Source of the DNA: Psammoneis japonica
Lineage: Eukaryota
Assembly (NCBI GenBank): GCA_008632985.1
Contig: QPGO01000186.1
Location: forward strand, 1-64,000
Direction: 5' to 3'
Length of the DNA: 64,000 nucleotides
The notes below the pieces were generated by a model. That model was not told the DNA's origin. It saw only the letters and a program-made list of their open reading frames with translations, and did not search any database. Within the stretch, counting starts at the first letter, position 1; each line of letters begins with the position of its first letter. Below are positions 7,673 through 63,931 of the stretch, piece by piece. The position numbers and the translations under genes are program-made.

Positions 7673-8789
7673 TCACCAGGTTTGAAGAATGGAGTTCACA
7701 CAGACATCAGTCGGAAAGACACCCGCATTGGCTCCGACAAAGACATTGTCTGTGCGTGCTGCTTTTGCGTGATTGGAGGTGTCACCTGCTGAAAACAAGT
7801 TTTGCCCCTGAGTGTTGGCAGTGTTGTTGGCAAACCTGTTGTTCTGAATGATGATGGAGTTGTTCATGCTGCTGTCATTCTCTCTGGCAAACACATGGAG
7901 TTCTCGGCCGTGGCGGTTTGCAAAGTTTCCTTTAAAGTGGTTGTCGTCAACAACGACTTTGGAGCCAGAAATGTCTTTTGCAACTGTTTGAACAGAGATT
8001 GCCCCTTGTCCCCACTGCGGGGAAACAGAGACAAGATGCAACACTGAGCAGGTGAAACCAGCAGAAGCAAGAAAAACGGAGAAGAGCAAAAAATGGTTGC
8101 TTTGTTGTTTGTGTTCACACCATGTGAAGCATTGTCCAGGAACCCATTCTTCTTGACAGTGGCTGCAAGCTGAGCCCCACCAGCCCCTTTGTTTAGAGAG
8201 ATTGCTCCCCCGAGGAGAGCCCCTCTCCTGTGTTTCCCTTGAAAAAGCTTGGCTGCACATCAAAGTTCCCACCTGGCCTTGTTCAAACTGAAAACTGTTG
8301 GTGGCAACAATTGGCAGAGATGTGTGCATCTGCACAAAGCCTTGGATGTTGTGTGTGTGCAACTTTTCTTGCCGTTCCCTCAAAGGTCATTTTCCTCACC
8401 ACAACATCTGGGGACTCATTGAAAACAATGGTGCCTGTGTTGAAGGTGCATCTGTCCCTGTCTCTTGCAGTGCAGCAAATGCCAATGATGCTGCTGCATT
8501 CAGTTGTCTCTGTGCTGGATCTGCCGACCAGCGCGGCGCCAGCTCCATCGGCGAGATCGACTCCGCCCGTGACTGAGTTGGGACAAACACAAGTTTGAGT
8601 TCGCACATCATGAGGGTCGGCACTGGCTGAGCTGAGACCACCTGCCAGGTCTTGACGATCTGCAATGCACGCAGTCTTTTGACAGAAACCACCTTTTTTG
8701 CCTCCTTTTGTGGATTTCTTGCCACCCTTTCCCGATTTCTTGCCCGCTCCCGATTTTTTGCCACCTGTTTCTGATTTCTTGCCGCCCAT
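7673..8789 (-). pseudogene. Decayed host-type gene: GKK-rich low-complexity N-terminus, then a Cys-containing region and beta-helix-like (GAI / FxxN) repeats
   Basis: ORF 8283-8789 begins MGGKKSETGGKKSGAGKKSGKGGKK. ORF 7673-8383 contains QGAISV, NHFKGNFA and NRFANNTAN. Frames are broken, there is no Tyr, TpA is nearly absent and no signal peptide is visible. Confidence 0.5.
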
Positions 8790-9259
8790 TCCTGACTAGC
8801 TAGAGTAGAGTGTACGTAGAGAGTTCAGGCCCCTATTTGACTATGCTGTTTCTCACCATAACACTGGCAATATTTTTGAAAAATATACTTGCATGCAAGT
8901 CTAGAGGACTCAATCTTGCCTTGTACAACACTCGTATCTTAGAGCAAAGGAGCGCACAATTTTGTCGGCCACAACGCAGCTCCCTTGATCCGATCTGATC
9001 CAACTGCTCTAGACTTTCTGATCGGCGAGTTGCTCTCTCTCTCTTGACGGCGAAAGCTTCTCTCTATTGCGCAAATTTGTGCATGATGATTGGTCATTCC
9101 CTACCTAGAGTACCGCATCTGAAACGAAGTTTGCATCAAAACAAAAAAGTACCGTGCCGTCTACCTCTTAAGGCCTTTAAATTTTTTTGCTTATATGCTA
9201 TTGGCTTCTTCTCCTCATGTATTTTCATAAAAGTACAAACTACACCACAGTCCTCGTCT

Positions 9260-21536: not shown

Positions 21537-21910
21537 AATTTTGTTTCAAGAGACTTGTAAATTCGTAACAGGAGATGAAATGAAAACAGAGCGGTGTATG
21601 CGAAAAACCCAAAACGGCATTGTCTTTTTTTTTTGTTCAATTCGCTCTGACATCGCGTTCAACGCACATCGACTATATTCAATATATTCTAAGATATGTT
21701 ATATATAAATGATTATGAATATTTATGGATATGTATATGATGATTAATTCATCGGAATAGTGAAGGTCTTGCCGTTGTCCGAGAGTGGCGCGAGCGTCCG
21801 ACGACCGCGAAAATTTCGCGCCCCATTTTAATTTTTCCCGCCTTTCAGTGTTGTTGACAACGAGCCAAGTCGTAAGTCTGTGAAATCGTCAGAGTTAATT
21901 TCTCGTCATT

Positions 21911-40200: not shown

Positions 40201-40985
40201 AATTTCCGTCGCGAGCTCCTCGTGTGTCACCTTGAGTTCAGAATCAATAATTTCTTCCATGCGCGGCGTACAGCCGTGTTTAAGAACCTTGTTGCTAAAG
40301 ACGGAACTCTTGCGAAGCAAATCCAGTTCAGTCTCGTCCTTGGTGGCCATGACAATGCCAACGCCCTGGGTGGCGTCCACCACGGTGGCTTTTTCGTCCA
40401 GCATGGTTTCCCATTTTGAAACAAACGAAGACGAGTTGTCCTTGTTTCGTTCCTTGACAAACACACCAACAGTTGCCTTTTCATCATTTTCATCCGTGGC
40501 ATTGAGTCCAGCTTTTTCCAAGAGCTCTTGTAGATTCTCCGCGTTATCGTCCGCCTTGTTCTTCACAAGAAACGTAATGCTTTTAATGGGATGACCCGGC
40601 GGTGCCTGATCCACGGCGGGGCGTAGAAAGTCACACTTTTTGCGTGCACCCATAAATACGACATGACCGGCTTGGGTTAAAAGCAGAATGGTTTCGGGCA
40701 ATTCATAGCCATAGAGGTACAGTTGCAACACGACGCTCTTGAGAAACAACGCGTCCTCATCGTGCTGACCGCGCTGTAGACTGAGACAAGAAGCATTATG
40801 CCAAACTGTGGAACTGCAATACAGAAAGAAAGCAATGTGAGATTATGTACAGCAATACGCAAACGCACACGAGAACCGCAATGCTTTTATTCTTACCGAT
40901 TCTTGACAAAGTGCGCGTGGAGTTTACCGAGACGGGCATAAAAGCGCGGCACGTCCAGCTCGGGACCGCCTCCGTTCTTTGACAT
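37300..40985 (-). CDS. SPT16: FACT complex subunit Spt16, multi-exon
   Basis: LYGYELPETI, YFPIVQSGGNYD, SLGSRYKYYCSNIARTFLVDP, PFHISTIKNV, GNLESHTNGLRF, HFERV, GPMNLNWKQIM and an acidic C-terminus. Confidence 0.97.
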
Positions 40986-44563: not shown

Positions 44564-46237
44564 ATGACATCACGGGCAGATCATTGTGCAACCGAAGATT
44601 CCGCTCTTCTGAACAGAGAGCGACAGATGTCTGAGTCGAGAATAAATTGGAAACGAATGAGAATGTTTGGAATTGTGTTGATTTCTTTTACGCTCGGCTC
44701 TCTTGTGATGTCAAGTCGTCGGGTATCCTCGCGAGAAAGAAACATGGATGAATTTGTGTCTTTCCCAAGCGACTTTGTTTGGGGTTCGGCAACATCAAGT
44801 TACCAGATTGAAGGCGCCACAAAAGAAAATGGCCGAGGAGTGTCGATTTGGGACGTTTATTGTTCTACAGATGATAATCACACAAACTGCAATGGTGATA
44901 CAGCTGATGTAGCGTGTGATCATTACCACCGCATGGAATCGGATGTGAAGCTCATGGCAGAGCTTGGGCTCAAGGCTTACAGATTCTCAATAGCATGGCC
45001 ACGTATTATTCCTCAAGGGTCCGGCGAAGTGAATGCTGCGGGGGTTGCTTTTTACAATAGGCTCATTGACAAATTGCTTGAACACAACATTGAACCGTGG
45101 GTGACCTTGTATCATTGGGATTTGCCGCAAGCACTTCAAGACAACTATGAGGGATGGCTCGGCAGAGACATTGTCAAAGACTTTGGAGACTACGCAAGAA
45201 TATGTTTTAATGCATTTGGAGACCGTGTAAAGCATTGGATGACCATTAATGAGAGCTGGACGGTTGCAATCCACGGCTTTGAAGAGGGCTCGAATGCACC
45301 AGGGTACTTTGGTCAGCCATACATTGTTGCACATCATTTGATCTTGGCTCATGCAAGAGCGGTGCGCATATATAAAACAGAGTTTGCGGCACAGAATGGT
45401 GACATTGGGATTGCAAACTGCGGAGACTTTCGATTTCCTCTGGACCACTCTAGTGAGGCGGACCTGGAGGCCGAAGAACGAGCCATGGAATTTCAACTTT
45501 CTTGGTTTGCGGACCCAATATGGAAAGGTGATTATCCAGAGTCTATGCGAACTATGCTTGGATCGCGCCTTCCTCATTTCACTCAGGAAGAACGATCCGA
45601 GGTGTTGGGATCGAGTGACTGGTTTGGTTTGAATCACTACTCGTCGTTATTAGCTAGCAAGCCCGAGGGCAAAGCACCGAGTAGCGGTGGATACTGGGAG
45701 GACATGCATGTGAGTTTTAGTTCAGATCCCAGCTGGCGAAAGAATTGCATGGTACGTCACAAGTGTTCTGAGGACATGCAACATCCCTTTCTCGCCTTGA
45801 ACTTGAAAAGATTTCAGCGTCTTGCTCCCTCGCACGCCCCGTACTTACTGTAGGGCTGGAGCATCGTTCCGGACGGCGCTCGAAGGCTGCTAGAGTGGAT
45901 TGACGAGCGTTATGATCACCCCAAAATTTACATGACAGAGAATGGATCATGTGATGACGAGCCAGATCTGGATTCTGCTCTACATGACTACGGGCGACGC
46001 GACTACTTTGAAGGGTACCTCCGAGCTTGCGCGGAAGCAATAGAGGCTGGAGTCGATCTTCGGGGTTACTTTGCATGGTCGTTGATGGACAATTTTGAGT
46101 GGCAATATGGATATAAGCGTCGGTTTGGTATCTTTAGAGTGGATTTTGTAACCCAGAAACGCACACCCAAGCTCTCGGCGGCGTGGTATAAGGACACCAT
46201 AGCATCAAACGGGCGAAACATTGATAAGGCCAGATAA
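44564..46237 (+). CDS. Glycoside hydrolase family 1 (beta-glucosidase-like) with N-terminal TM; intron 45752-45853
   Basis: FPSDFVWGSATSSYQIEGA, YRFSIAWPRI, TLYHWDLP, acid/base TINES, nucleophile YMTENG and GYFAWSLMDNFEW. Confidence 0.95.
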
Positions 46238-47720
46238 TTGTTGTCGATGCTTTCCACGATGTCATGTGGTATTTCTTAATCTCTCCAAAAAACTAAAGTT
46301 TGGCACTCCAGAGTAATACCAATATAGAAGGATGGCAGTATGAATGAGCCCAATGATGGCTGTGACAAAATCATACCAAAAAGTGTCAGCTGGAATCCAT
46401 CCAAAAAACTCTACGAGAAAGTACATCGAATTGCTTTCAAGGACGAGCAACATGAGCAACCAAAAGCCCTGATTCATAATTCGTTGCAGTTTGATTGGAT
46501 ATTCAACACTCGGGAGACTTGAATCAATAAACAATCTGAATCCGATCTCCACAAATGCAATAGACAACATTAACTCTGTGCTTGCTGTATTCGGAGCAAA
46601 GTTGCGCGGCAAGCAGGTTATTGCCACAATGTTCAGCATTCCCATTAAAGGCATGATGTTTGTATCGTAGTGCCCGCTTTCTCGTAGGACGGCCAACGAA
46701 ACCTGCAGGCAATGGTCCGTTTTCCTCGTACCGGCCTGTCCAAATGAATGGGGTACGAACTCAAACTTTAGCGAATTTCTTTTGTGCTTGAATCCAGGAA
46801 TATGGATGTACTCCACTAAGTGCCCATAAGGCACAGGGGTGGATCCTTGACTGTCACTCTCTTCCGCAAGCTTCAGTTTCCATTTGTTTCTATCCCATTT
46901 TCTTCCTGTGTGTCTATTAGCCAATATCGCAAGCCTGATGACAAGTTCGTGGCGATCATGAGGAAAGTCGTCAACACGTAAATTCTTCTGCAGCAACACA
47001 GCATTGTACATGCAAGTCCAACGCATGAGTCGTGTATCTTCTCGGACAAGACAGACTTCAGGATTGCCGATTGTATCAAACGAAACCACGTTTAGGATCG
47101 AAAGCGGCGGAACGTCGACTTGTTCAATAAAACTAGTATCCATTTGCTGTCGACAAGCATGCTCTCGACCTTGCATAGTCCAAACATACGGTTGGAATTT
47201 TGATCGCTTTGCTGTATTATCATTTTGTTCATCCCCCATGTCATTCCAGAACAAAGTTACTCGAAATTTCATGGGAACATGACCAAGACGAACGTCCACT
47301 TCTCCAACATGCCACACCACGACCTGGAAACGTATTGAAGCATCGCTGTCTTCCTCAAAGTGTGTGGGAAGAATACGCCTCCTCGCCATTCCATAGTTGA
47401 CTTTATTTTTCAGCAGAAAACTCTCATCATTCGCCTCCTCTTCATCGTCCTCGAGGAATAAACCCGAATTATCGTCGTTTTCGTTCGCGTCATCACTAAC
47501 CCAGAAGAAAGACGTGCTTCGATTCATCTCAACAACTAGACGCACTGAAAGAGGAAACCTGCGCAAGGTTGACGAGCGGAGTCAACAAATGAGCGTCAGC
47601 AAGAAAGAAAGAATGGATGTTGATGGCTGATGATGGCCGATCGATAATGGGGTCGCGAGCTGGGATTGATTGCGAATTCGATGGTCCTGGTCGAGTCTTG
47701 TAGTTGGTGGCGTTTTTTAC
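45726..47720 (+). repeat. Segmental duplication, copy A (GH1 3' end + pLGIC-like gene + upstream DNA)
   Basis: Aligns by eye with 60237-62210 from ATCCCAGCTGG to GGTGGCGTTTTTTAC. Confidence 0.95.
46262..47566 (-). CDS. Pentameric ligand-gated ion channel-like protein (Cys-less Pro-loop type), copy A
   Basis: MKFRVTLFWND, VPPLSILN, DDFPHDRHEL (FPxD loop) and four C-terminal hydrophobic segments. True start uncertain (ATG 47527 or an upstream exon). Confidence 0.75.
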   Translation of the reverse strand: MRRFPLSVRLVVEMNRSTSFFWVSDDANENDDNSGLFLEDDEEEANDESFLLKNKVNYGMARRRILPTHFEEDSDASIRFQVVVWHVGEVDVRLGHVPMKFRVTLFWNDMGDEQNDNTAKRSKFQPYVWTMQGREHACRQQMDTSFIEQVDVPPLSILNVVSFDTIGNPEVCLVREDTRLMRWTCMYNAVLLQKNLRVDDFPHDRHELVIRLAILANRHTGRKWDRNKWKLKLAEESDSQGSTPVPYGHLVEYIHIPGFKHKRNSLKFEFVPHSFGQAGTRKTDHCLQVSLAVLRESGHYDTNIMPLMGMLNIVAITCLPRNFAPNTASTELMLSIAFVEIGFRLFIDSSLPSVEYPIKLQRIMNQGFWLLMLLVLESNSMYFLVEFFGWIPADTFWYDFVTAIIGLIHTAILLYWYYSGVPNFSFLERLRNTT

Positions 47721-47745
47721 AGCCAGACACGCCCCCCCCCCCCCA

Positions 47746-48250
47746 GGTTTTGACGTGAAATTTTGAGTGTCTTTTTTTGTCGCAAACTCTTGTCATGGCC
47801 ATTGCTCCAGCACTTCATCATTCAGCTGCAACGTTGATTTGTCTTGGAGCTTCAGTTTGCATGTCAGAAGGCCCTTGGGACATTGTGCCATTGATGCAAA
47901 AGAGTGGAGCCCCTCAGCAAAAAATGCCCTTGCACATTGAAAGCACTGAGGATGGATCTGTCAGCGCACTTGTCACAAAATCTTCTTCCTGGGCTGGCCA
48001 GCCATCCTCCAGGCAATGTTGTCCCAAAGAAGCCTTTGTTGGCCCCATCCAATGACCCCTGGTTGTGTTTCTGATGATTTGCCTGGCACAGCAAGCTTGA
48101 TCACATTGGCAAGCATCTCTGCAGCTGGCGGGTTCATTCAACTTGTCTGTGACATCTCCAAGGCCAGATCTGCTGCCACTCCCATTCCTTGCTCTACTCC
48201 AAGCTTTGCTCCCCCATCTCATGACAACCAACATGGGTGTGGGTGGCCGT
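47746..48250 (+). repeat. Diverged ~500-bp direct repeat, copy 1
   Basis: Shares CTTCATCATTCAGCTGCAAC, GGACATTGTGCCATTGA, CCAGGCAATGTTGTCCCAAAG and GGTTCATTCAACTTGTCTGTGA with 52447-52955. Confidence 0.9.
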
Positions 48251-50481
48251 GAACAATGATTTCTTGTCAAAGGTCAGAGATTTGGCGGCGATGATGAGCC
48301 GTTGCTTTTGGCAGCAATGGATGCTGGGCTCAACGAAGATTGTTGATGGAATCAGAATTGTTGGTCACTGCCTGGTGCTGCTTTCACTGCTGATCATGTG
48401 ATTGTTGCTGCTGCTGGAGATGTTGTTGCAATGCTGATGCTGATGGCACTGCTGCCGTCGTTGCCTCTGAGCGATGGCTGCAGCAAAGGAGGCAACATGG
48501 TTGCACTCAAGACAAAATTGATTGTGGTGTCTAACCTCCCATTGCAGTGTGGCATGACACAACTGCTGCCACATCATGTGATGATCATGATGACACTGGT
48601 CTTTGGTGGATTTGAATGACCGCTGCCATCATGTCTGGTGGTGTGTCCACTGTCCTTGTCATCTCGGACCTCCAATCAGATCTAAAACTTGCAAGCCAAC
48701 ACATCGTTGTTGTTCCCATTGAATGTCATTTTGGTTGTGCTGTTTTGTTGGTTGAGCTGATGATGCATGTGCAGTGCATCAACCAACCTCTGCCAACAAA
48801 ACAACAGTCCGATGGAAATGAAGCATCTCAAAATCACCGCATCTGGCTAAAAATGCAACAACGGTCACCTGACAGACACAGCAGACAGCAGCAACAGCAT
48901 TCAGCATGCTGGCACAGTGCAGTGCTGGCACCCATGGCAACATCAACAACCCACAATGCACATCAGAGATTGCAACTTGCAGCCAACCAGACACCACTGA
49001 CTGAACAACAAAACCAAGAACCCTTGTCACAATGGATCTGGTTGCCTTGCAGGCAAGACTTCGTGCCTTGATGGAAATGACTTTGACTCAGGATGAGCAC
49101 AAGATCCTGGCTGCAGCTCTGCCAACTGGCCCCATTTTGCTGATGTTGAAGCACAAACAGTTGACTGTTTGGATTGGGGACTTTGACTGGTCAGCTGCCA
49201 CGGTGGCCTTCCTGGCAAACAAAGCAATCACAAAGTGGACTTCTCCATCTGATGCTGTCTTCAGCTTTGTGCCAAAAAGGAGTGCAGCTGCACTGTTTCA
49301 GATGCCTGTCTGAAGGCATGTGTGCATCCTTGCATGTTGTTTGTCAAAACAGAGCAGATTGGCTTCTCAGACTTTGCCGAGGAAGATGCCCTCAAGCATG
49401 CCAGAGTCCAAGATGTCAAGATGGATGACAATGAGCACAATTGTTTGAATGCCTTCAGCATCTGCGTCTTGTGGATCACATTCTGTTTTACATGGTGGTC
49501 ACATTCCTTGCCCCAGATGGAAAGTCCGGCATTCCCAGGTCCAATTGCAATCATGACAACAATGAACTGCTCCCCCACGCAGTGAGGGATTTGCAACTCA
49601 AGCATGAACTTTACAACCCCATTGAGAAAGGTTGCAAACATTCTTGCCGCAAGTTCATTTCAGTGGTCCTTGTTCTTGCCGCTTCCTTCACCGGCATCCA
49701 ACTGGCCTGCAAAGAACAAGTTGATGGTTCTGCCAGCAAAGGTCCAGTTGGTTGGATGGCACACTGCCAACACCACCGAATGTGCATCACTGAAGGCAAA
49801 AAAGACAACATCTCCAGTGGTTTGTGTCAGAATCTTGTGCAGTTGGCAGCTGCCAGCAAAGGCCGAGGCACAAAACATGCCCTTTGCATTGATTTGCCTT
49901 TGTTTGGTGTTGCCACGACTTGCACAGAGTGGACATTCCTTGTTTGGACCCTCCAACAAAACCAGATGGAATGAATCAATTGGCTGTTTGTCTGCCAACA
50001 GACATCATCAACTGCAGAAGAAATCTCAAACAAGATGCCAAGGCAGCAGCTGAGCACATTGCGGCGCTTTTGTTGCACCAAAAGAAGCCAGTTCATGAAC
50101 AAACTGGAGGTGATGGCACCAAGAGAAGCAAAGAAAAATGATCTAAGGTGTCCCAACTGTTCCTGAGGACCATCTGGCCAGAGAGCCAATGGATTGTTTT
50201 GCCACTGGACTGTCATCTTGCACCGCACTGAGTGCGTCTCTGCGATTGAAGTGGGGCACGGGGGGGGGGGGGGTGGAACTTGGGGCGGCATCTGCATGCC
50301 CTTCAGGAAGATCAGGATCAGCAAACCCACAAGCAGTGAGGATTTTGACAGCAGACAGTGACAGTCAACAACAACCTGCAGCAATGAACATTGCCATCAG
50401 TTTGAGACCTGAGCAAGGGAGATTTGTTGCAAGTTTGGTGGTCAACCACTGGAATGAACAGCTGGAAATGATTCTTGAGAA

Positions 50482-50852
50482 GGAGTTGTGACAATGGGTG
50501 GTGGAGCAGTGCAGGCCATCTCAAAGCACCAGAAGCTCAACACCTGAAGCAGAACAGAAGCTGAGCTTGTTGGAGCCAACAATGCCACAACCATGATGCT
50601 GTGGACAAAGCTCTTTGTGGAGCACAAAGGGCATTCAATCAACAAAAATGTCCTCAAGAGTGCCATCCCATTGGAGACTGGTGGGTGCAGGAGTGCTGGC
50701 AAAAGGTTGTGAGCATTCAACACCCAGCACATTTCTTTGTTGCCAATCAAATCAAGAAGGGCAGCTTGCAAGTGCAGTGTTGTCCTGCCAATGACATGCC
50801 AAGGGACTTGATGACCAAACTGTTGCAAGGTGAGAAGTTCCAAAAGTTCTGA
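50482..50852 (+). mobile_element. Ty1/copia RNase H fragment (degenerate)
   Basis: GGAVQAISKHQKLNT*SRTEAELVGA...MLWTKLFVEHKGH and HFFVANQIKKGSLQVQCCPANDMPRDLMTKLLQGEKFQKF match the copia RNase H pattern (KLNTRSSTEAELV; YFF...YCPTxDMxAD.xTKPLQG). Confidence 0.88.
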
Positions 50853-52446
50853 TGAGCTGTTGTGGTTTGTCAACTTCAAGCACGACAGGCATGACAAGGC
50901 CTGTTCTTTGTGATGTCAGACAAGAGTTCTGATGCATGTGGGTGAAAGATCCCTGACAAGTTCAATGCTCAGTGCAAACATGAGGTGTGATGAGAGCCTT
51001 GAGACCCGCACACATCATTTGTGTCAAAGAATGATGAAAATGGAAGAAGAAACCACCTTTGTTGATGTTTGAACCATCCGAGTGCTGCGTTGTTTGGACC
51101 AATCAAAGACAGATGGCCCAATTGCTGCTGGAACAGATGAAAGAAACAATGTGATTGGATTGATGCCACATGCAGAAATTGAGAAACCACTGCCGGTGTG
51201 AGTGGAGCTGTGGAGGCAAAAATGCTGTGCCATGAAAGAATTGCATGACAGCGCAGTGAAGGATTGGACATGCTGTGTGCCAAGGCACATGACTGCTGCT
51301 GTGCACCGGTGGTGTTCTCAATGCATGATGAGACAAGAGCATCATGAACAATGCCAAGCTGTGCAGAATGAATGTGTGCAAGACCAGAGAGTGCTGGTGA
51401 ATGTTCAGCTTTGATGATGAGTTGCAGGGCAAGATTTGCAGCTGAAGCTGCAAAGAGAACAACAAGTTTGAGAAGATCACACCAGACCAACATGTTGCCA
51501 GATCCCGGAATGGGAATCTTCAAGAACTTGCAATGGACAAGAGAGATGTTTCTTTTTCTCACCCTGCAGACAAATTGAGGGTCAGCTGTCCTCCCACACA
51601 TGGTGTGGACAACCAAGGGGCACATGGCCCATTTGAAATGCTCAGTTTGAAAGATGATGGGTGTGGCAAGGTCTGCTGTGGACCAGTTCAAGACAAGAAT
51701 GGAGATGTCTTTGCCATGTGCAAGTTGGCGCAATTCATTGATTGTGACATCAACAAAGCAAGGTCCCATGCAATGTGAACCTGTCAGAACATGGATTTCT
51801 TTGTGGTGGATCCTGAAGTGGTCAATGGATCATGGACCAATTGAACAGTTCACACAAAAGGAGCTCAGTGGAATGGAATCACCGTGCCTGTGTTGTTGAG
51901 TTTGTGGAGTGTGCACAAAATGTTGCCCCAACACTTTCAATGACATGTTGGAATTTGCCAACAAAGGGCATCATGCCAGCTGGCGGTGCACCTGAACAGA
52001 AGACAATGGTGACAACCAAGGAGATTTGGCCAGCAAGTTCATTGTGAGGAACAAGCACTCCAACCATTGATTGCAGCAACAAGAGTGTGTCAGAGCATCA
52101 AGACTGGCAGAGAAAATGAGAAGCCTGGAAGCACATCTGTTGAAGAGAAGATGCTTTCTTGGATCCTGATGTGATGGATTTGGTGACACCTGACAAGCAA
52201 ATGTGCATTCATCACCAATCTCACCAACCTTCTTTTTAGCTCACTCTTTGGAGTGAATCATCTGGTTTGCATGAGTTGTGTTGTGATGCCAGTGGGCACT
52301 GTTTTGTCACCTTTGCGTTGCAAGAACAAAGTTGTTGAGAGCTTCCAGGCAAACCACAGTTGCCATGAAAACCAGGACATGTGCAACAAGTGGCACAGGA
52401 AACCTCAGAGGATTCCCTGCATTGACTTGTTGGTTCAACAATTGAT

Positions 52447-52955
52447 GGCTTTGATGTGAAATTCTGCATGTGTTTTTTGTGCTGTAAAACTCACTCTTGT
52501 CATCACCACTGCTCCAGCCCTTCATCATTCAGCTGCAACATTGTTTTGTCCTGGAGCTCAAATTTTCATGTCAGAAGGCACTCTGGACATTGTGCCATTG
52601 ACGCAAAAGAGTGGAGATCCTCAGCAAAATGTCCTTGCATGCTGAAAGCACTGCAAGTGGATCTGTCATTGCCCTTGGTGCAAAATCTTCCTGGGCTGGT
52701 CTGTCATCTTCCAGGCAATGTTGTCCCAAAGCAGCCTCTGTTGGCCCATCCAATGACCCCTGGTGTTTCTGATGAAATGCCTGGCACAACAAACTTGATC
52801 ACATTGGCAGCATCTGCAGTTGGCAGGGTTCATTCAACTTGTCTGTGATGTCTCCCAGGCCAGATCTGCCTGCACTCCCACTCCCTTGCTCTGCTCCAAG
52901 CTTTGTTGCTCCCCCAGTGACAGCCAATGTGTGGGTGATGGGTGTGGGTGGCCAT
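52447..52955 (+). repeat. Diverged ~500-bp direct repeat, copy 2
   Basis: Aligns with 47746-48250. Confidence 0.9.
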
Positions 52956-53899
52956 CAGCTCTCTGTCTTTCTTTGCCCAAGTGCTCCAATCCACTGCAGG
53001 ATCTGTTCCTTGCACCATGGCTGCTTTGGGCATTGCACCCCATTCTGTGGAGGTTGCTGGCTTGAAGCAAGGGGCCACCTGTGTGAAGTGCAGCCAGCAA
53101 GGATGCTGCACATGGACAAGCTTGGCTTGAAGAGCATCAGAAATCTTTGGAACAACTTCAAAACAATCACCAGGAGCAGCTGAGCCATCTGGTGCAACAG
53201 TTTCAGGCATTTTTCTAGCAGCACCTTCCCAACAATGATCAAGAACCCTGCTCCTCTCCTCAGCACAAGTGGCAATCTGTCTGCGTCACCCCTGCTGGTT
53301 TGTCAGTGGAAGTTCCTCCTCCTGGAGATGCTGCTGTGGCCAGCATCACCTGCAATGAATCAAATTTTGTGGGAGGTGGGACAAGTTGTCTTCCTTGCCC
53401 TTTCCAAATGATGTTGCAGGTGATGCATCTGACACAAAGTCTTTCTTTGAGGAGGCGTGGCCCAATCACAAGTGAAGGTCTTCAAAATCTTTGTGTGAAG
53501 CCGCTTGGCAGAGTGGGGCCAAGTGCTGGATGGACATCATTGTGCTCCTGCCAACCAAACCATTGGTTGCTGAAATTTTTCTGGCTGCAACACAATTGGC
53601 AACGGTCACCCAATGGAACCAAAACTTTCTCATTGCACTTGTTTCTTGTGTGCTTTCAATGCAAGTGGGTGCACACATGATTCTTGTGGCAGCGACTTCA
53701 ACATGTGTTGCCAGGTTGCAATCAAGATCCAAGCAGGTGTCATTGGCATTTCTGCTGCTTGCTGCACAACCCCACATTGCACAACCCCTTGCAGGTCAGT
53801 GGTCCACAACTCACTGCATCATGGCTGTGTCAGTTTGTCTGCATCCTTTGTTCCCTTCACTGTGCTGCACAAACCAGGTGGTGCAGTTGTTGTTTCCTG

Positions 53900-56800
53900 C
53901 ATCTCTGTGTCTTTGCACTGTCAAACCTGGCAAGCAGGCTCATTGGGCACATTTTCAATCCCAACATTTGATGAAAAACAAGAGGTTGTCAAGTCATGTT
54001 TGTGTTGCATCATCAAGTCTGCATGAGCTGGTCTTCATCCTCTGCAGGCAAAACTGCTGCCTGTCCCCAACAGGTGCCACTGCTTTGTCAACAAGGCAGA
54101 GTTCTGCCTGATCTTCATCAAGCTTTTTGTGCCAACTTTGAGTCCTTTCTCAATGACCTAAATTGGAGGGTGATGCTCTTTGCAACTCCAACATCTGACT
54201 TTGTCATGACACTGACTCACTTGCCAGATTGGCAATTTGATTCAAGTCATCTGATGTCATGTTCAGTCACATGCAAGACATGGATTTTTCCACCTGCTTG
54301 TGCACTCTTGGCAACTTGACTGCACTCTCACAACTCCAGGGGCTTTTGACATGGCACAGCACTGTGGTCACAAATTGTTTGTGCACAGGATTTTGTTGGA
54401 CCACTGTGCATGCCATTGGCTTGAGCATGCATTTTCTCTTTGGAAACCCTGCCATTGACCTTCCCCAAGCAGATTTCTGCTCTCTTCATGCTCATTTTTC
54501 CAAGCACATCACTGTGTGTCTAGAGGCAATTGGGCTGATGCTGGACAGTTGTGCTGTGCTGGCATGGAATGCTGTGCTGTTGCACCCCAACACACCAGAT
54601 CTTCTTTTTCTTCTTGCTGAAAGGCCAGATGGAGACATTGCTCAGTTTTGCATTTCTGCTGCCAAGCATTGTTGCAAGTGTCAGGAGCCAGAATGGTCCA
54701 AGAAATTTGCAGATCTCTGCCACACAAAGTGTTCACTTTTTCCTGCCTCTTGTCCATGTTCAAAAATCGACTCAACTTTGTTGAGTCCATTCTGGTGAAT
54801 GGTGTGAGAACTTTCTCAATCATTCCTTCTTCTGCCCACTCATGACAACAACATCAGACTGCCTTTTGCAAAGCTCAAGCCAGGTGCAAAAAGGTTGCTT
54901 GTGACTGTGTCAAGAACAGAGAATGTGAGTGTCACAAAAGAGTTGCCAAGTTTGGCCTCAAGTGCACTCCAGAGTTTGCCAAGCAAGCAAAGATCCTCTG
55001 CACTTTGCAATGTGCAGAGGAAACAAAGCTGCATGTTTGGGAAGATCAAAGCATTTGCAAACAAAGAAGCCTCTGGTGTGCAAAATGTTCAGGTTCCCAA
55101 GAACCCCACCAGGGATGATCCCAAGACATGTGAGAATTGGGCAACAATTGATGCTCCAAAAAATGTTGCTGCTGTGTCACAAAAGAGCAAGAAATTGAGC
55201 ATGTTTTGGACAAGCTCAAGATGCCCCTTCTGTGGCTCCTCCTCAGTTGGTTGATCTTGGAGACATGAGAGCAATGCAGTCATGGCTGGCCCAGTTCTTG
55301 ATGGCAAGTGTGGCACTGATTTGTTTGATGAAGCTGCTGCCCTGCTCATGCTGCAGCACATGTGTTGACATGCTCCAGTGTGAGCATTGAGTTTTCTGAC
55401 TCCTGACAAACTGTGCAAGAGAATTTGAGTCTTGGCCAGAGCTCACTTTCACTTCTTTGAATCAGGTTTGCACCCAGGTGTCGCTGGAAGGTTGTGCACT
55501 CAGACCAGAGTGCCTTCCATTGCTCTGCACAGGATGAGCATGGAAGTCCAATGAAGAAGAGATTTGCAGCATGTGTCTGCTGGCTAACACAGCAAGGTCA
55601 TGTGTTGACCTCTTGAATGCACTTTTTGATGTCAGCAAATCCACTCTCAGTCCCAGCATGTTTTTCCATGCATTCTCTTGTGCTGACATTTCCCTTCTCA
55701 GATGGTGCCACAATGGCTCCTGCCAGCCCCTTTCAGCTGCTTCTTCCATTGGGCAACTTTGTTGCAGCATGTCAAAAGCAACGTTTTGCAGCAGCAATCA
55801 TCTGCATTGATTTCCACAGATTGATGCGTGCTTGTTGTCTTTTCTGGCAAATTTCTGCTTGTGTTGTGCAGCTTCTTCACAGGATTCAGCACAAGTTCTG
55901 TGAGAGTCACAAATCACAACCAACAACCAACTCATCCTGTCTCCAAGCTTCTCTCATCTGCACATGTCAGCTCTCAACAAAACTCTGCTTCCTGTTGTCA
56001 AATCAGGACGCGTTCCAGGTCTGGGTGGGACCTCGCACTGCTGAACTGTGACATCGACAGTTTTTTGAATCGCGTCGTATGTCGCGCACGTAGATTTCTA
56101 CGTGCACGACATGCGGTGAGCTTTTTGCTTCTGTTGTTGCACTCAGTGGTGAGCTGAAATGCATTTTGTCAATGTCCTTTCAACTGATCCAATCATCAGA
56201 AGATCTGTTTTTGCACTCTGCTTTCTTTGTTGTGGAATGACCATTTTTTTGTTTTGTTGTGGACATTTTTCAAGTCATCATGAATGATGCAATGAACTCC
56301 ACTGCATTGTGTTGCTGTTCCTGCTGGGCGTGTCACCTTGAGGAACCAATGCACTGGAAGTGTGGGCCAGCCAACAACACCAGCCCAGCTGGCAACAAGC
56401 AAAACAGCACTGTGAAACAGATCTGTTTCTTTGAGCCCCTTGTGCACAACAGTGCGGCACTGTTCAAGCTCACACCTGGGAAGCATGGTCCAAGGAGAGG
56501 GCATGGCTCCTGACTTGGGCAAATCCAGAGAGATGCCTGGAGTGCACCCATGCATTGTCTGCCCCCCAATGATGGCAGTGCAGCATCTCATGAGGACATC
56601 ACACACATGGAGATGCATGATGGCTTGATTTGCACAATCAACATGATGCAAATGGCTGTGATTTTGTCTGACACAATGCAAAAACCAAACAAACAGAAAT
56701 TCAATGTGATTCCCTGTTTGCATGACCCTGCTTCTGCAGAGCAAATTAGGCTCACAATTTTCACAGCAGCACTTCTGTGACACATCTGCATTTTTGCAGC

Positions 56801-59800
56801 CTGTTGGGCACATGGGACAGATTGGACCTTGGCCACACACAGCAAGAATTGTTGCGAGAGCTTTGTCCAACTTTTGCAAGTGTGAAGTGTGGTTGGCTTC
56901 AGCTCTGCACATGGAGCTCTGCCAATTGTGTGGCCTGTGACCCCCTGGCATGTGTGGTTGTTGCACTTTTTGATGCTCCAAGACTCCATCATTTTTGGAA
57001 ATTCTTGCACTGGAAATCTCCAGATTGTCCAGAGGGGCACTTTTTGTTGCCAGCAACAATGACTGCACTTTGTGCTGCAATGGGAAAGTGCAGGCAGCAA
57101 TGGCAGCAATCCTTTCTGAGTGTTTGGGCAAAAGTGTGGTTTCTGCGGTGGCAAATGTCCCCCATTTTCTTCTGGGCCTCTCCAAATGGCCCTGCTCCCA
57201 TTGTTTTGATTTTCCAATTGTTTGTGGGACAGGCCAAGGCAGTGTCTGGCAACTCTCTGTTTTGTTGAAACAATTTGCGCAGTGCACCATTTAAAATTTT
57301 TGATTCCAAGCCATGCAGAGCATTCTTTGAATCAATCTCCTGACGGATCCCATCAAGTGCAAATTTGTGTCCAAGCACATGTGGATGACACATCAAAGCA
57401 GATCAATGACTTCCCAAGCATCTCCTCAACCTCTTTCTGTGGAACGTGCTTCTCTTCTTTGGCATCACAACCAACTGTGGTGTGATCAGCTCAATGCATG
57501 TGGGCATGAGTTGCAGCAGCTGAAAAATTCCTTTTATGACACTGAGTGGGATCTCTTGGAGTGGGGGGGGGGGGGGACCAAATTTGCACCCACATGCAAT
57601 GAAGACCTGCACACTGAAATCCACTCAGCAGATCAATCAACTTCCAAATGCAGCAAACAGCTGTGTCTGTGTGCTCCCCACAAAACATTGGGGCATCTGT
57701 TTGCACTGATTGGGACTCAGAAGAAGCAATGATGCATGGAGTTGGGCTCCTTTTGTTTGTTGTTTCCTGCCAAATTGTGCCAAATTGTGACAACATTGTT
57801 GTGCCTGTCATTTGCCATCAATGGCTCATGTTCTGGCATGCCCTCATTTCTCTTGCAAAGCAGAGCCATGCACAACAGGTTCAAAACAAGGCATGCAGGC
57901 CATGTTTGCAAATGTGGGTGCAACCAAAACACTGAGCAAATCATTGTGTGTGAACCACATTTTCCTTGGAGGAGCTAGAGTTTGGTCACTTGATGTGGAA
58001 CAAGGGGCAACACAAGTGCAGTGGTTCATTTGTCATGCCTGTGGAGTGCAACAGGAGCTTCTCTCCAGTGGTTGTTTGCATGAGTCAGCATGACACATCG
58101 CAGTTGCTTGGCATCAGCTGCAACCAGGCACTGATGTGCAAGCTTTCTCCATGATGTCAGCTCTCCTCTCTCTCAATGTGAGCAATCATGGCTTGCATCT
58201 CTTTGTGCTCATTTTGATGGAGTCTTGCCTCTGGCCTTCAGAGAGTCAGCAATCTGGTTGGCACTTGGCAGACATGATGTGTTAGAGTTGGAGCAGTTTT
58301 CTTGTCTTTGGAAATTTGGTGGATCAGCTGTTGCTGATTGCATCTCCCAGTGTTCATGGTGTTGGACATTGCTCCCTTCAATGGATTGGATCTTGATGAG
58401 TCTGAGGTTTGTGGCAACCTTGCATTTCTCAGCAGCACCAGCATGCTCAACAATGTCTGACAAGAAAAGACATCTCTGTGAGCCTGGAAGCCCTGGATCT
58501 GCTTGTGCAACTTGCTGCATTTGCCTGAGTCCACACAGTTGAAAGCCCCTTTGGGAAACTGGTTGTGCCTCCATTGAAGATGTGCAGACAAGTGGCAGGA
58601 TCCTGTGTTCCCAGCAAGAAAGCACATTTGCATGTGTGATCTCTGTCTGGCTTTGACATGTTTCTCATGATGCAGAAAGCTTGGGAACTTCAGCAGGAGA
58701 TGTCTTCTCTGTCTTCTCTCAACAATGGGCACTGGGAGCTTGAATCACAGCATCAATTGAAGCTCAGTGCAGAAATGCCTCCATCTCTAACCTGGTTCTT
58801 TTTAGGAGCACTTGCGTGTGACATTGCCTTTCTGGGAATGTCCACTCTTTTCTCAGATCTTGTCTTTCTCATGTTTTGCTGTCAAACTTGGTTGGGCATT
58901 TTGTGTTGAATTGACTTGCTGTGGGTGGTGATTGTCCATGCATTTGGGTGCACCATCACAGTCAATGGCCAGCCATTGTTTTGTTGACTGTGCAGATCCA
59001 GTGTTTGGCCAGTTTCCTTTCTCACATTAAGCCAAGGCACGTGAAGTTTTGTTGCTGTTACATTTTCTTGTGTTTTGGCCAGCCAAGTGCTGCAATGTGA
59101 CTGGACATGAAAGATTGGAAAATTGCTGCAACAACAGTGCCCTTGTGAGCATCCTCTTCAACCTTTCAGTCTCACAACCAACCACTGATCCCCCCCCCAC
59201 CATTGACCTGGAGAAAGTTGTCAAGCTTTGCTGCCATGTGTGAATGTGTTGTTGTCAGAGTGGGGTTTGTTTGATGAAATGCACCAGATGTTTGTGGAAT
59301 GTTGCATCTCTTCTAGATCTCTTCTCAGCTGGGGTTGTCCCAGGTGCTTCGTGAGCAAAGGGACACCAGGGTCAACAAGCTGCTGCAGAGTTGCTTCCCT
59401 CCTTGATGCCAGAGTCAATGTCTGTGCAGATTGCTTGGCAGCTGGCAGGCCAGTTTCAAGGACAGCAGCAATGCTCATGACATGGCTCATGTTCTACCTT
59501 TTCCCATTCGTGAGCCACACCTTTGTCTGTCTGACAGAACAGCTGCTGCCAGGTTGAAGGCAACTGTCCAGTGTGCTGCCACAGCTCTTGCTTTCACAGA
59601 GCACCTTTGCAAAGGAACAAGAGTTAGATGGAAGCTGCAACAGACTTGATGGACTGTAAAGTTCACACAACTCTCATCCACTGGAACTCCAAGTGACATG
59701 CATCTTCCATCATGCTGATTCACAAGCTCTCACCTGCAAACAAAATTGCCTGCCAGCACAACTCTGTTTGCCCCCACAGTGTCCCTTCGAATGTGGAGAG

Positions 59801-60200
59801 TCCAACCAAGTTGGTTTGTTGATCAGGAATTTGTGTTGGGAGCAATGGGAGCACACAATGAAGCAGTTCACTGTCATGATGATGTGGAGTCCCAAAAGTC
59901 AGCTCAATGCCATCAAGTCAAGGCCAAGCTGACAGCAACACACAACAAATGACAAGAACACTTGGCCAAAGATTGCAAAGTGGGGTGCAGAACTGGGTTG
60001 CGATGGTGAAACCTGGACTCAAAGACAGCTTTAAAGAAGAGAAGTGCCTCATGCTCCATGGGACATGCACCATTGTCAGCCATTTCAGTGGGGCATCACC
60101 TGGCAGTGATGCCCATCCTGGCCAACCCATGGTTGCTTCTGCCACACTGAATGCTGCCCTGGAAGTGCACATTGACCAGTGCTGGCCTGGCTGGCAATGG
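53900..60200 (+). mobile_element. Degenerate large non-LTR retrotransposon (LINE): probable APE, RT and possibly RNase H; limits approximate
   Basis: RT motifs CGTGQGS (57223-57243) and AHVDDT (57375-57392, i.e. YVDD), then LWCDQLNACG...LKNSFY and HKTLGH. Weaker endonuclease-like IGLMLD / KIDSTL at ~54530-54780. Assignment to the diatom Ambal-like clade is only a guess. Confidence 0.75.
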
Positions 60201-60236
60201 AGCAACAACACCATAAAATTGATCTGTTTTTTATAT

Positions 60237-60660
60237 ATCCCAGCTGGTGAAAGAATTGCATGGTACGTCACAAGTGTTCTGAAGACAAGCAACATCCCAT
60301 TGTCACCTTGAAATGAAAAGTTTCCAATGACTTGCTTGTTTGCACGCCCCCCTGGGGCTGGAGCATTGTGCCAGACGGTGCTCGAAAGCCACCAGAGTGG
60401 ATTGACGAGCGTAATGATCACCCCAAAATTTACATGACAGAACGGATCATGCGAGGATGAGATTCAGCTCTACATGACTACGGGCGACGCGACTTCTCTG
60501 AAGGGTACCTCCGAGCTTGCGCAGAAGCAACAGAGGCTGGAGCCGACTTTCAAGGTCACTTTGCCTGGTCGTTGATGGACAATTTTTGAGTGGCAACCGG
60601 TTTGGTATCTTTAGAGTGGATTTTGGAACCCAGAAACGCACACATTGATAAGGTCGATGC
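60237..60660 (+). pseudogene. Truncated, frameshifted copy of the GH1 3' end
   Basis: Homologous to 45726-46255 including the intron. The splice acceptor region is lost, TENG and DNFEW are frameshifted and there are several deletions. Confidence 0.92.
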
Positions 60661-60739
60661 TTTCCACAACTTGCACGTGATGTCATTAGTTGTTCTTGTA
60701 CGATGTTACGTTGTTTACTATTTTTTCTTTATCTCCCAA

Positions 60740-62005
60740 CTAAAGCTTCGGCACCCCAGCGTAATACCAATAGAGCATGATGACAGTATGATTGAGTCCA
60801 ATGATGGCGGTGACACAATCATACCAAAAAGTGTCAGCTGGAATCCATCCATAAAACTCAACGAGAAAATACATCGAATTGCTTTCAAGGACGAGCAACA
60901 TGAGCAACCAGAAGCACTGATTCGTAATTCGTTGCAGTTTGATCTGATATCCAACACTTGGAAGACTTGAATCAATAAACAATCTGAATCCGATCTCCAC
61001 AAATGCAATAGACAACATTAACTCTGTGCTTGCTGTACTGGGAGCAAAGTTGCGCGGCAAGCAAGTTATTGCCACAATGTTTAGCATTCCCATTAAAGGC
61101 ATGATGTTTGTATCGTAGTGTCCACTTTCTCGTAGGACAGCCAACGAAACCTGCAGGCAATGGTCCGTTTTCCTCGTACCGGCTTGTCCAAATGAATGTG
61201 GTACGAAGTCAAACTTTAGTGAATTTCTTTTGTGCTTGAATCCAGGAATATGGATGTGTTCCACTAGGTGCCCATAAGGCACAGGGGTAGATCCTTGACT
61301 GTCGCTCTCTTCCGCAAGCTTCAGTTTCCATTTGTTTCTATCCCATTTTCTTCCCGTGTGTCTATTGGCCAATATCGCAAGCCTGATGATAAGTTCATGC
61401 CGATCATGAGGAAAGTCATCCACACGTAAATTCTTCTGTAGCAAGACAGCATTGTACATGCAAGTCCAACGCATGAGTCTTGTATCTTCTCGGACAAGAC
61501 AGACTTCAGGATTGCCGATTGTATCAAACGAAACCACATTTAGGATCGAAAGCGGCGGAACGTCGACTTGTTCAATAAAACTAGTATCCATTTGCTGTCG
61601 ACAAGCATGCTCTCGACCTTGCATAGTCCAAACGTACGGTTGGAATTTTGTTCGTTTTGCTGTGCTATCATTTTGTTCATCCCCCATGTCATTCCAGAAC
61701 AATGTTACTCGAAATTTCATGGGAACATGACCAAGACGAACGTCCACTTCTCCAACATGCCACACCACGACCTGAAAACGTATTGAAGCTTCGCTGTCTT
61801 CCTCAAAGTGTGTGGGAAGGATACGTCTCCTCGTCATTCCATAGTTGACTTTATCTTTCAGCAGAAAACTCTCATCATTCGCCTCCTCTTCGTCGTCCTC
61901 GAGGAATAAACCTGAACTATCGTCGTTTTCATTCGCGTCATCACTAACCCAGAAGAAAGACGTGCTTCGATTCATCTCAACAACTGAATGAGGAAATCTG
62001 TGCAA
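60740..62005 (-). CDS. Pentameric ligand-gated ion channel-like protein, copy B
   Basis: Intact ORF nearly identical to copy A, with a shorter C-terminus (GVPKL* versus GVPNFSFLERLRNTT*). Confidence 0.75.
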   Translation of the reverse strand: MHRFPHSVVEMNRSTSFFWVSDDANENDDSSGLFLEDDEEEANDESFLLKDKVNYGMTRRRILPTHFEEDSEASIRFQVVVWHVGEVDVRLGHVPMKFRVTLFWNDMGDEQNDSTAKRTKFQPYVWTMQGREHACRQQMDTSFIEQVDVPPLSILNVVSFDTIGNPEVCLVREDTRLMRWTCMYNAVLLQKNLRVDDFPHDRHELIIRLAILANRHTGRKWDRNKWKLKLAEESDSQGSTPVPYGHLVEHIHIPGFKHKRNSLKFDFVPHSFGQAGTRKTDHCLQVSLAVLRESGHYDTNIMPLMGMLNIVAITCLPRNFAPSTASTELMLSIAFVEIGFRLFIDSSLPSVGYQIKLQRITNQCFWLLMLLVLESNSMYFLVEFYGWIPADTFWYDCVTAIIGLNHTVIMLYWYYAGVPKL

Positions 62006-62404
62006 GGTTGACGAGCAGAGTCAACAAATGAGCGTCAGTAAGTGGGCATCAAACGCAATAAAGGAAAGAAAGAATGGATGTTGGCTGACCATGGACTGGT
62101 TGATGGCTGATGATCGATGACATCGATGCGGTCGAGGTCGCGAGCTTGTCGCGAGATCGAGAGATGGTCGATGGTCGTGGTCGAGTCTTGCATTTGGTGG
62201 CGTTTTTTACTTCCTCATGACTGAAATCCCACCAAAAAACCCGGAAATCCCACCCTGGCGCGCCGAATATTATTGAGCTTCGAAAACCGGGGGGTTCGGG
62301 CGGGTGCCCGGTTCATTATTCCGGTTCATGCAAACAGTGTCCCTATCCATTACAGTACCTATCCATCATCGCCTGAGTAAGTCTAAGTCTTAAAGACCTG
62401 AAAG

Positions 62405-63931
62405 ATGCAAGATCGGGAGCACGTTGCTCTCATACTCCCTCCGGGACCCCTCGGGATCCAGATCTCACTGGTAAGGACTCCTCCTCCTTCAACCTCGAGC
62501 TACTGCACCGTGACGAGCGTTGGCTCTGCAAGTAAATTTGTCATAGGAGACTTACTTTACTCCATTGATCGTGTGCAAGTTGCTAATTGGAGCCTTCAAG
62601 ATGTATCTCAGCTTCTTTTATCGAGAGCCGAAACCGTCCGCACTGTGGTGGTGATGCGAAAGAAGAAGCCGCATCCTTCCATCGTCGCCCCAGCGATATC
62701 TGAGAGTGAAATGCAAGAACGACATAAAAGAGCCAGAGAGCATGCGCTGACATCCCTTCCCGCATCGGAGAATACTCAGGCAGCTGAATACCCGAAACGA
62801 AAGCGGGGTCGACCGCGTAAGGACGAAACACGAGAGGCTACTCAAGCTCGTAGCATGCCCAAAGGAAAACCTGGAAAGCAAAGAAAAGTTGAAAAGAAAA
62901 AGGCTGCTGCAGAACGCTCAAGTGTTACTGCTCCTCCACCACAACGGACTGCTGCTGCAGCATCTGCTGCAGTCGCTGCTGCAGAACGCTTAAGTGTTGC
63001 TGCCGCCCCACCAAAACGGACTGTAGCTGCAGCATCTGCTTCAGCTACTGCAGTGAAGGTACCTGAGACCGAGGCTCCTCATGACAGCCTTCATCGCCCA
63101 GAAGTTAAGGGTCAAATTGTCAAGTCATATGAACTCAAAGTAAGTGCTGATAAGCTCGAATCGCTGCAGGGAGATTCTCGATTGGAAGGAGACTCTCTTG
63201 CTTTGGAGCGACTTAAGGAGCTCTGCCAAAGCATGCGCCAGGAGAGTGAACAAATTATGAACTCTCGCCCGGACTCTACCTTAAACACCGGAGAGCGCAA
63301 TCTCAAGGGGCTTATCAAGTTCAAAGAAGAACACGGCCATTGCAATGTGCCTTCTTCCTACAAGAACAAGTCACTTGCTGCTTTCGTCATGAAAATGCGG
63401 GAGCGGCACAGGAAACGTTCATCGGTCTCGAGTCAAAGAGGCAAGCAGCGATTAAACGATGACATTGGGTTTCTCAATCGGCTTGGGTTTTGCTGGGGAT
63501 CACCCGGTGCGTCACCGATAGATTGGGACACCCATTACGAAAAACTAAAGGCCTTTGTAGCGGAAAAGGGCCACGCGAGGGTCCCGCAAATCTACGAGCC
63601 TGACAAAAGGCTGGGTAGCTGGGTGCATGCCCAGCGCAAGGATTATGAGAACTTAAAGGAGGGTAAGAAATCTCCACTTACCGAAGAAAAGATTAAGAAA
63701 TTGGAGGATATAGGTTTTCAGTGGAAGCTAAGAATTGCACGGCCCAAAAAGACGGATGAGCGCTACAGGCGGGTTTCGAGAAAGAGCTTGACCAACGGAA
63801 ATACCGATACGGAAGCAGCAACTTCACACAAAGCTGAAAACGACAACAAAGAAGGGGAAAACGCCGAGAAGGAAAACACCGAGAACGAAGTTGGAGAAGG
63901 GCCCTTTGATCCGGGTGAGTTTATTATATAG
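62405..63931 (+). CDS. Helicase-associated (HA) domain protein with PDZ-like N-terminus and AT-hook; may continue past a donor site at ~63914
   Basis: LPPGPLGIQI...IGDLLYSID (PDZ-like), KRKRGRPRK, and two HA repeats FKEEHGHCNVP...LGFCW and WDTHYEKLKAFVAEKGHARVP...LGSWVHAQR...LEDIGFQW. Confidence 0.85.
   Translation: MQDREHVALILPPGPLGIQISLVRTPPPSTSSYCTVTSVGSASKFVIGDLLYSIDRVQVANWSLQDVSQLLLSRAETVRTVVVMRKKKPHPSIVAPAISESEMQERHKRAREHALTSLPASENTQAAEYPKRKRGRPRKDETREATQARSMPKGKPGKQRKVEKKKAAAERSSVTAPPPQRTAAAASAAVAAAERLSVAAAPPKRTVAAASASATAVKVPETEAPHDSLHRPEVKGQIVKSYELKVSADKLESLQGDSRLEGDSLALERLKELCQSMRQESEQIMNSRPDSTLNTGERNLKGLIKFKEEHGHCNVPSSYKNKSLAAFVMKMRERHRKRSSVSSQRGKQRLNDDIGFLNRLGFCWGSPGASPIDWDTHYEKLKAFVAEKGHARVPQIYEPDKRLGSWVHAQRKDYENLKEGKKSPLTEEKIKKLEDIGFQWKLRIARPKKTDERYRRVSRKSLTNGNTDTEAATSHKAENDNKEGENAEKENTENEVGEGPFDPGEFII

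Follow-up and report, generated by a model that had tools for sequence, protein, structure and literature searches.

The window analyzed here is a stretch of 64,000 nucleotides from Psammoneis japonica (contig QPGO01000186.1, positions 1 to 64,000), in which a truncated copy of a GH1 gene, hereafter the relic, adjoins a block of DNA depleted in TA and CG. The features of the window are as follows.

1–3770, 6934–8796 and 47719–60213, no strand: depleted blocks (TA o/e about 0.04, CG o/e 0.11–0.37, TG and CA about 1.9).
12335–13618, 19548–21545, 26384–27727 and 39565–40842, minus strand: host genes with ricin-type lectin, TLDc, TPR and SPT16 domains (Pfam-type domain matches).
44564–46237, plus strand: intact GH1 beta-glucosidase gene with PF00232 on both exons and an open spliced frame; the exact start ATG is uncertain.
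45752–45853, plus strand: intron of the GH1 gene (GT..AG, 102 bp).
46262–47527, minus strand: gene X copy A, an intact ORF for an uncharacterised protein conserved in diatoms.
47719–60213, no strand: repeat block adjoining the relic (12.5 kb, TA o/e 0.04, CG o/e 0.12).
47746–52953, plus strand: decayed copia-like element flanked by 81% identical direct repeats (47746–48248 and 52447–52953).
56007–56104, no strand: short mid-block repeat motif with retained CGs and an inverted repeat; a similar motif occurs in four other loci (L051, L048, L082 and L066).
60182–60236, no strand: right margin of the block, with 51 bp that also occur in a block on contig C30, followed by TATAT.
60237–60660, plus strand: GH1 relic, comprising the end of exon 1, the intron and most of exon 2.
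60237–60385, no strand: CpG-loss zone next to the block, where 7 of 11 aligned CpGs have become TG or CA and the sole aligned TA is kept.
60740–61975, minus strand: gene X copy B, an intact ORF whose 3' end faces the relic.

Positions 45726–47720 and 60237–62210 form a direct duplication with 86% identity, the 12.5-kb block lying in between, and the duplicated unit, which contains the 3' part of the GH1 gene (PF00232) and the whole of gene X, has only these two matches in the 91.4-Mb assembly. Because the intron is retained in both copies, the duplication occurred at the DNA level. The relic carries a nonsense codon at 60248 and several frameshifting indels and has lost its splice acceptor, and one contig of run X2 ends in the letters of the GH1 exon-exon junction. 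The relatives of gene X share 36–63% identity with it and include named diatom proteins. Its two copies are 95% identical at the protein level (of 408 codons, 41 differ synonymously and 20 non-synonymously), and copy B matches the relatives at residues G, Q and C, where copy A departs from them. X2 contigs cover 60881–62095 of the copy B region with 1, 5 and 2 differences; together with the spliced GH1 junction they hint that copy B is transcribed, X2 being one run that is not recorded as RNA. The relic is the dead member of this 2-kb tandem duplication and is situated at the edge of a putatively silenced repeat block.

Blocks of this kind are widespread. In 424 kb from four P. japonica regions that were not chosen for repeats, the window included, 38 TA-depleted blocks make up about 36% of the DNA, and outside them TA o/e is at the host level. 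The block next to the relic is covered by short-read contigs of run X1 with few differences, and one X1 contig (57645–60278) bridges the block-relic junction; an assembly artefact is therefore unlikely, with the reservation that X1 may come from the same sample. Between X1 contigs and the window at 47966–51507, 19 of 26 differences fall at CG, TA or CA/TG doublets among the differences listed (40 of about 100), which suggests that the haplotypes kept diverging at these sites of the block. Within the copia-like element, the direct repeats are probably LTRs, and 50478–50952 has 68% identity to a copia locus on contig C7; a resemblance to RNase H was judged by eye from its motif. A tblastn search of the window with copia ORFs gave no match, and the right half of the block was left without annotation. 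The motif at 56007–56104 is CG-rich, escapes the depletion and has a very high X1 contig depth; it may be where an abundant element ends, or else a site that is protected. To the right of the relic, the HA-domain gene region at 62360–63289 has a second copy on contig C186 (99487–101505), which has lost 8 of 18 TAs in one segment and is accompanied by a tandem repeat. On the same contig, TA returns at the same aligned point in two copies (98205 and 103290), and a third copy outside the blocks, on contig C10, retains TAs and CGs that these two lost.

All nine doublet substitutions that the first-pass annotation had quoted from the alignment of gene and relic are present, and it was right that TA is ancestral at its three TA>CA sites (45891>60393, 46041>60531 and 46067>60557): the residues affected by the resulting L412P, I462T and Y471H belong to LL, AI/AL and GY in the four solved GH1 proteins compared. 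The list had left out TA transversions at 45911, 46004 and 46149, reverse TG/CG differences at 45943 and 45952, and four more CpG losses. With these included, CG>TG/CA is found at 10 of the 26 CG sites of the fragment 60237–60645 (10/52 bases vs. 8/147 other C/G bases; one-sided Fisher p = 0.005). Five of the ten losses are synonymous and three intronic, and the direction of these is polarised only by the 10:2 asymmetry. Changes at target doublets are asymmetric between the copies, 13 forward vs. 2 reverse (p = 0.004); the asymmetry is mainly due to CpG, which accounts for 10 of the 13 forward changes.

The TA sites of the relic give a less clear picture. TA>CA occurred at 3 of 13 sites in the same fragment (3/26 bases vs. 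7/165 other A/T bases; Fisher p = 0.14, Poisson p = 0.05–0.12), and thus the enrichment over other A/T bases, by which the earlier reading had proposed to be judged, is not significant. Transitions do not dominate, as three TA transitions (3 of 44 substitutions in all) are matched by three transversions. If all substitutions are pooled, 6 of 13 TA sites are changed (binomial p = 0.015; per-base Fisher p = 0.06). Deletions took away 6 of the 19 TAs of 45726–46170. With deletions counted, the relic has 8 TAs vs. 19 in the gene, and its TA o/e is 0.31, compared with 0.68. These six TAs were removed by three small deletions (45841–45852 and 46106–46119 in gene coordinates), one of which is exactly the splice-acceptor TA. 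The TA excess in the relic is 2.7-fold, compared with 0.5- to 5.6-fold in six other out-of-block duplicate pairs read both ways and about 50-fold in the converted zones described below; non-target divergence amounts to 25/312 bases (8%). The samples are small (13–14 TA and 26–27 CG sites), and, as regards the direction from TA/CG to TG/CA, which is correct, the relic cannot show it for TA; copies of retrotransposons do.

A search for copia reverse transcriptases yielded 804 candidates, of which 150 were scored and 30 taken as loci. Longer stretches were obtained at 40 loci and 37 of them tested (without C56, C160 and C267), and an LTR pair was present in 34; since the loci are the best reverse transcriptase matches, they are biased against TA changes that destroy Tyr. 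The 34 pairs contain 340 differences: 240 TA>TG/CA, 32 CG>TG/CA, 28 CA/TG double changes and 40 others. As the LTRs of an element are identical at insertion, these changes arose in place afterwards. One element (L031), compared with an outgroup copy, has changes at 57 of 63 TA sites (31 TG and 26 CA, with one transversion), at 17 of 81 CG sites and at 8 of 616 other A/T bases. In a young 6.6-kb copia family with ten copies (L094–L102 and C388:8910–15480), five copies are converted from the 5' LTR up to a front at about 1.5–4.4 kb, two are lightly changed and three unchanged. Non-target divergence is low on both sides of the front, and TA losses number 59 in the 5' LTRs vs. 2 in the 3' LTRs. 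Three of the copies (L100, L101 and L102) have a 3' flank in common, which limits their independence; L101 and L102 have no matching target-site duplication, which points to misassembly or recombination. In the converted parts of five young copies, 416 of 503 TA sites are changed, on both strands and with no transversion among 1006 TA bases. Of the 828 CG sites there, 43 are changed, and of the 5157 A/T bases outside TA, 40.

Our analysis shows that a mutator producing transitions only acts on both strands of chromosomal DNA after insertion and in a position-dependent manner, that TA loss precedes CpG loss, and that CpG decay is about 5- to 16-fold slower in the young elements. RNA editing before reverse transcription is ruled out by the changes on both strands, the unequal LTRs and the changed flanking DNA, and a single converted master copy was rejected as the main source, given that shared converted sites agree in 436 cases and differ in 250. 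In three families (L006, L009 and L029) the internal regions are TA-poor in every copy and the LTRs retain TAs, suggesting that elements already converted went on transposing. Among 80 of 218 metagenome relatives of the copia elements (L142–L221), CpG depletion is frequent, with o/e down to 0.03; none has a TA o/e below 0.35 (the lowest 1-kb window has 0.29), in a set shaped by best-match selection and collapsed assemblies, which says little about the spread of the process among organisms.

The position dependence follows the neighborhood of the element. Across families, TA is lost from whichever LTR faces the TA-poorer flank (24 informative pairs, Spearman 0.77, p = 1e-5), and this holds for 14 of the 16 pairs whose flanks contrast clearly. 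In nine pairs, in rows chosen by eye, exactly one flank consists of an old CG-poor block that predates the element. Seven of these have 58 TA losses on the block side vs. 0 on the far side, that is, 58 of 102 TAs (57%), with 2 CGs lost on the block side, at a background divergence of about 0.7% (12/1721). In the remaining two, one very young (L097) and one with both LTRs already TA-free (L128), the losses are 2 vs. 1. A universal 5'-to-3' polarity was rejected, as it is seen in the one young family but the 34 pairs overall have 127 vs. 113 losses. The DNA next to the C388 element, compared with a homologous flank on contig C74, has lost 4 of the 8 TAs that lie up to 286 bp from the LTR and none of the 28 that lie further out, to 1464 bp; this homolog is not the empty site of the same locus, and an empty-site allele was not found for L095 either. 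The spreading of the TA mutator from block edges is thus real at other loci, and the leakage into neighboring DNA that the first-pass annotation had proposed is a property of the system, although in the relic it holds for CpG only.

The distribution of changes along the relic separates the two doublets. Up to 60660, lost CpGs lie at a mean of 151 bp and kept ones at 244 bp from the block (permutation p = 0.016). The three TA>CA lie at 157, 295 and 321 bp and form no gradient (p = 0.41). The spreading from the block edge that had been proposed for both doublets is therefore upheld for CpG, by enrichment and gradient, and not for TA. The same separation is seen when 67 block edges are averaged: TA o/e outside is 0.55–0.66 vs. 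a host value of 0.53, i.e., a step, whereas the first 100 bp outside have a CG o/e of 0.90 (0.78 if the 41 CG-poor edges are taken), which reaches about 1.0 further out, so that its slope ends about 100–200 bp outside the block. Since TA itself was used to place these edges, the value of the first outside bin is inflated and the CG profile may be blurred.

Based on these results, we consider it probable that the relic marks a boundary at which the TA mutator stops near 60210 and CpG decay runs about 150 bp further, the three TA>CA being mostly or wholly pseudogene drift. Several observations argue for this boundary. On the junction side of the block, the TAs at 60214, 60232, 60234 and 60236 are unchanged; the TA at 60264 is intact; and the relic retains both of its GTAC sites and its GTAT, i.e., all three of the most vulnerable RTAY sites. 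Compared with the converted zones of the young copia copies, the relic deviates in opposite directions at TA (3/14 vs. 416/503) and CG (10/27 vs. 43/828; each p about 1e-6), and TA transversions stand to transitions as 3 to 3 in the relic, as 0 to 416 in those zones and as 1 to 57 in L031. The pooled TA excess, the TA o/e halved by the deletions and the closeness of the hits (within 321 bp, similar to the 286 bp at C388) speak against the boundary, and the CpG gradient is a single test.

The halved TA o/e and the closeness of the hits also favor a weak leak of the TA mutator into the relic, of which the three TA>CA, all polarised to the relic, would be the work, with the C388 flank as a precedent and the 2.7-fold TA excess as a further argument. 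The excess of transitions, however, is not significant, transversions are equal in number, a gradient is lacking, and the sites nearest to the block and most vulnerable are intact. Judged by their sequence context, the three hits have a likelihood ratio of 0.29 relative to a uniform process, one of them having arisen by the rarest route (TTAC to TCAC), all are on one strand (p = 0.09), and the ratio of TA to CG changes is the inverse of that in converted zones. We therefore regard such a leak as unlikely.

The first-pass annotation had supposed, as an alternative, that the process acted on the relic for less time. The relic agrees poorly with this: its non-target divergence of 8% is about ten times that of the seven LTR pairs, which had already lost more than half of their TAs on the block side. 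In a variant of this idea, the relic was brought to the block recently, e.g., when the GH1 copy lost its 5' part by deletion, and the mutator had little time. The junction cannot be dated, and very young elements such as L097, with 99.7–100% identical LTRs, are unconverted even beside an old block; but 7 of the 11 CpGs by the junction are already lost, even though CpG loss is the slower process, and we find a recent junction very unlikely. Equally little weight can be given to plain pseudogene decay of generally mutable CpGs with no influence of position, the gradient having arisen by chance. In mutation-accumulation lines of Phaeodactylum no dinucleotide is more mutable than CG (PMC6604790), and the gradient rests on one p value; however, the same short CG dip is present on average outside the 41 CG-poor edges.

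Two processes are at work in depleted blocks of this kind. The first is a fast TpA-specific transition mutator that changes TA to TG on either strand and prefers TA followed by a pyrimidine. The second is a slow CpG decay, presumably by deamination of 5-methylcytosine. DNMT5-dependent CG methylation of transposons is established in Phaeodactylum (PMC9998398); it would explain why CpGs decay slowly inside blocks and immediately beyond them, but not the TA loss, which comes before the CpG loss. The stop near 60210 is probably due to the location of the relic in the 3' flank of gene X copy B, which is intact and probably transcribed and could shield it. Between the gene X copies, transitions at target doublets are balanced (12 forward and 10 reverse; TA 3 vs. 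4), and no excess of TA or CG loss was found in gene X copy A, whose 5' end is about 190 bp from the left edge of the block.

In the converted zones, A>G per strand varies with the 3' neighbor (C 0.60, T 0.42, G 0.30, A 0.21), and it is half as high where the TA follows a G. The TAs surviving in old blocks independently confirm this 3' preference: TTAA is over-represented 5.1-fold and CTAA/TTAG 3.2-fold, and ATAT (0.03-fold), ATAC/GTAT (0.07-fold) and GTAC (0.28-fold) have been cleared. AA>AG amounts to 1.0%, compared with 41% for TA. We suggest that, in the first process, an enzyme recruited to silenced chromatin could deaminate A in DNA to inosine. The order of preference (5' T >> A, C > G; 3' C > T > G > A) resembles what we assume to be typical of TadA-type substrates (TAC). 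Alternatively, the changed base could be T, through a modified thymine in R-T-A mispairing, or an error-prone polymerase could act at WA, since A>G in TAY and T>C in RTA are indistinguishable from sequence. The lack of transversions and the low AA>AG do not fit the spectrum of polymerase eta, and, together with the resemblance to TadA-type substrates, they make this alternative somewhat unlikely. A Tet_JBP search of the assembly, too, gave no match, although its control gave none either. Conversely, no deaminase stands out among the nine PF00383 matches and two PF02137 (A_deamin) loci of the assembly, and amphioxus ADAT2 prefers GAA for adenosine (PMC10354150), which does not fit a TA target. 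The accessible text of PMC10661471 contains no context data for TadA. One locus (L089, C79:87006–90176, minus-strand ORF 313–1785) combines a TadA/MafB19-like deaminase with DIOX_N and 2OG-FeII_Oxy in one open frame, and a TadA-like gene is present besides. The assembly also has 27 C5-methylase matches; at L080–L082 (C301 and C297), C5 DNA methylase genes lie inside TA-depleted DNA and have apparently been carried there by repeats and converted along with them.

RIP in ascomycetes, which is triggered by duplication, changes C to T mostly at CpA, thereby creating TpA, and leaks into flanking genes. The process described here resembles it in the transition hypermutation of repeats in place, on both strands and with short-range leakage. 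It differs in that TpA is removed and not created by C>T, that the 2-kb duplication is largely untouched and not changed in both copies, and that the two LTRs of an element, though identical, do not fare alike.

A closer counterpart is the TpA hypermutation of integrated NCLDV and virophage DNA in Bigelowiella natans (Mettrop et al., bioRxiv 10.64898/2026.01.13.699255), where, according to the main text, the rate per generation is raised about 1000-fold, activity is limited to some lines, and an adenosine deaminase (with an ADAT2-like candidate) is proposed but unproven. As far as that text goes, the two systems share the restriction to TpA>TpG/CpA transitions on both strands of chromosomal DNA and the regional action on foreign or mobile DNA that leaves windows poor in TpA and rich in CpA and TpG; the P. 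japonica process has all of these features. In P. japonica, however, the host is a stramenopile, the targets are copia elements and older repeats amounting to about 36% of the sampled DNA, and the erasure is nearly complete (o/e about 0.04 vs. 0.45 in the NCLDV region). The later CpG loss, the 3' pyrimidine preference, the neighbor-dependent conversion of LTRs and the fronts inside copies are further differences from the account in the main text, from which the words "diatom," "CpG," "flanking" and "spread" are absent; its supplementary tables may hold context data. Literature searches, with subscription journals mostly outside their coverage, revealed no report of TpA loss in diatoms.

In conclusion, a TpA-specific mutator, described in 2026 in one rhizarian, is found here in a diatom-like genome, on retrotransposons and at a large scale. 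The relic alone is a weak example and should not be taken to prove that TA loss spreads; it is of value as a boundary where two decay processes part. The sequence preference and the position rules point to the class of the enzyme, and, with 240 of 340 LTR differences being TA>TG/CA, the dating of insertions by LTRs would be distorted. We tentatively propose, as a scenario that may well prove wrong, that this lineage of diatoms has a chromatin-guided DNA adenine deaminase with a preference for (non-G)-T-A-pyrimidine, which nucleates on new retrotransposons or enters them from old repeats and advances in cis as a front, and by which about a third of the genome has been rewritten. In this scenario the TA boundary would be separate from the CpG-methylation boundary, and active genes would shield DNA such as the relic. 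If true, nature would have its own adenine base editor of genomes, and RIP would have a counterpart that works from A to G.
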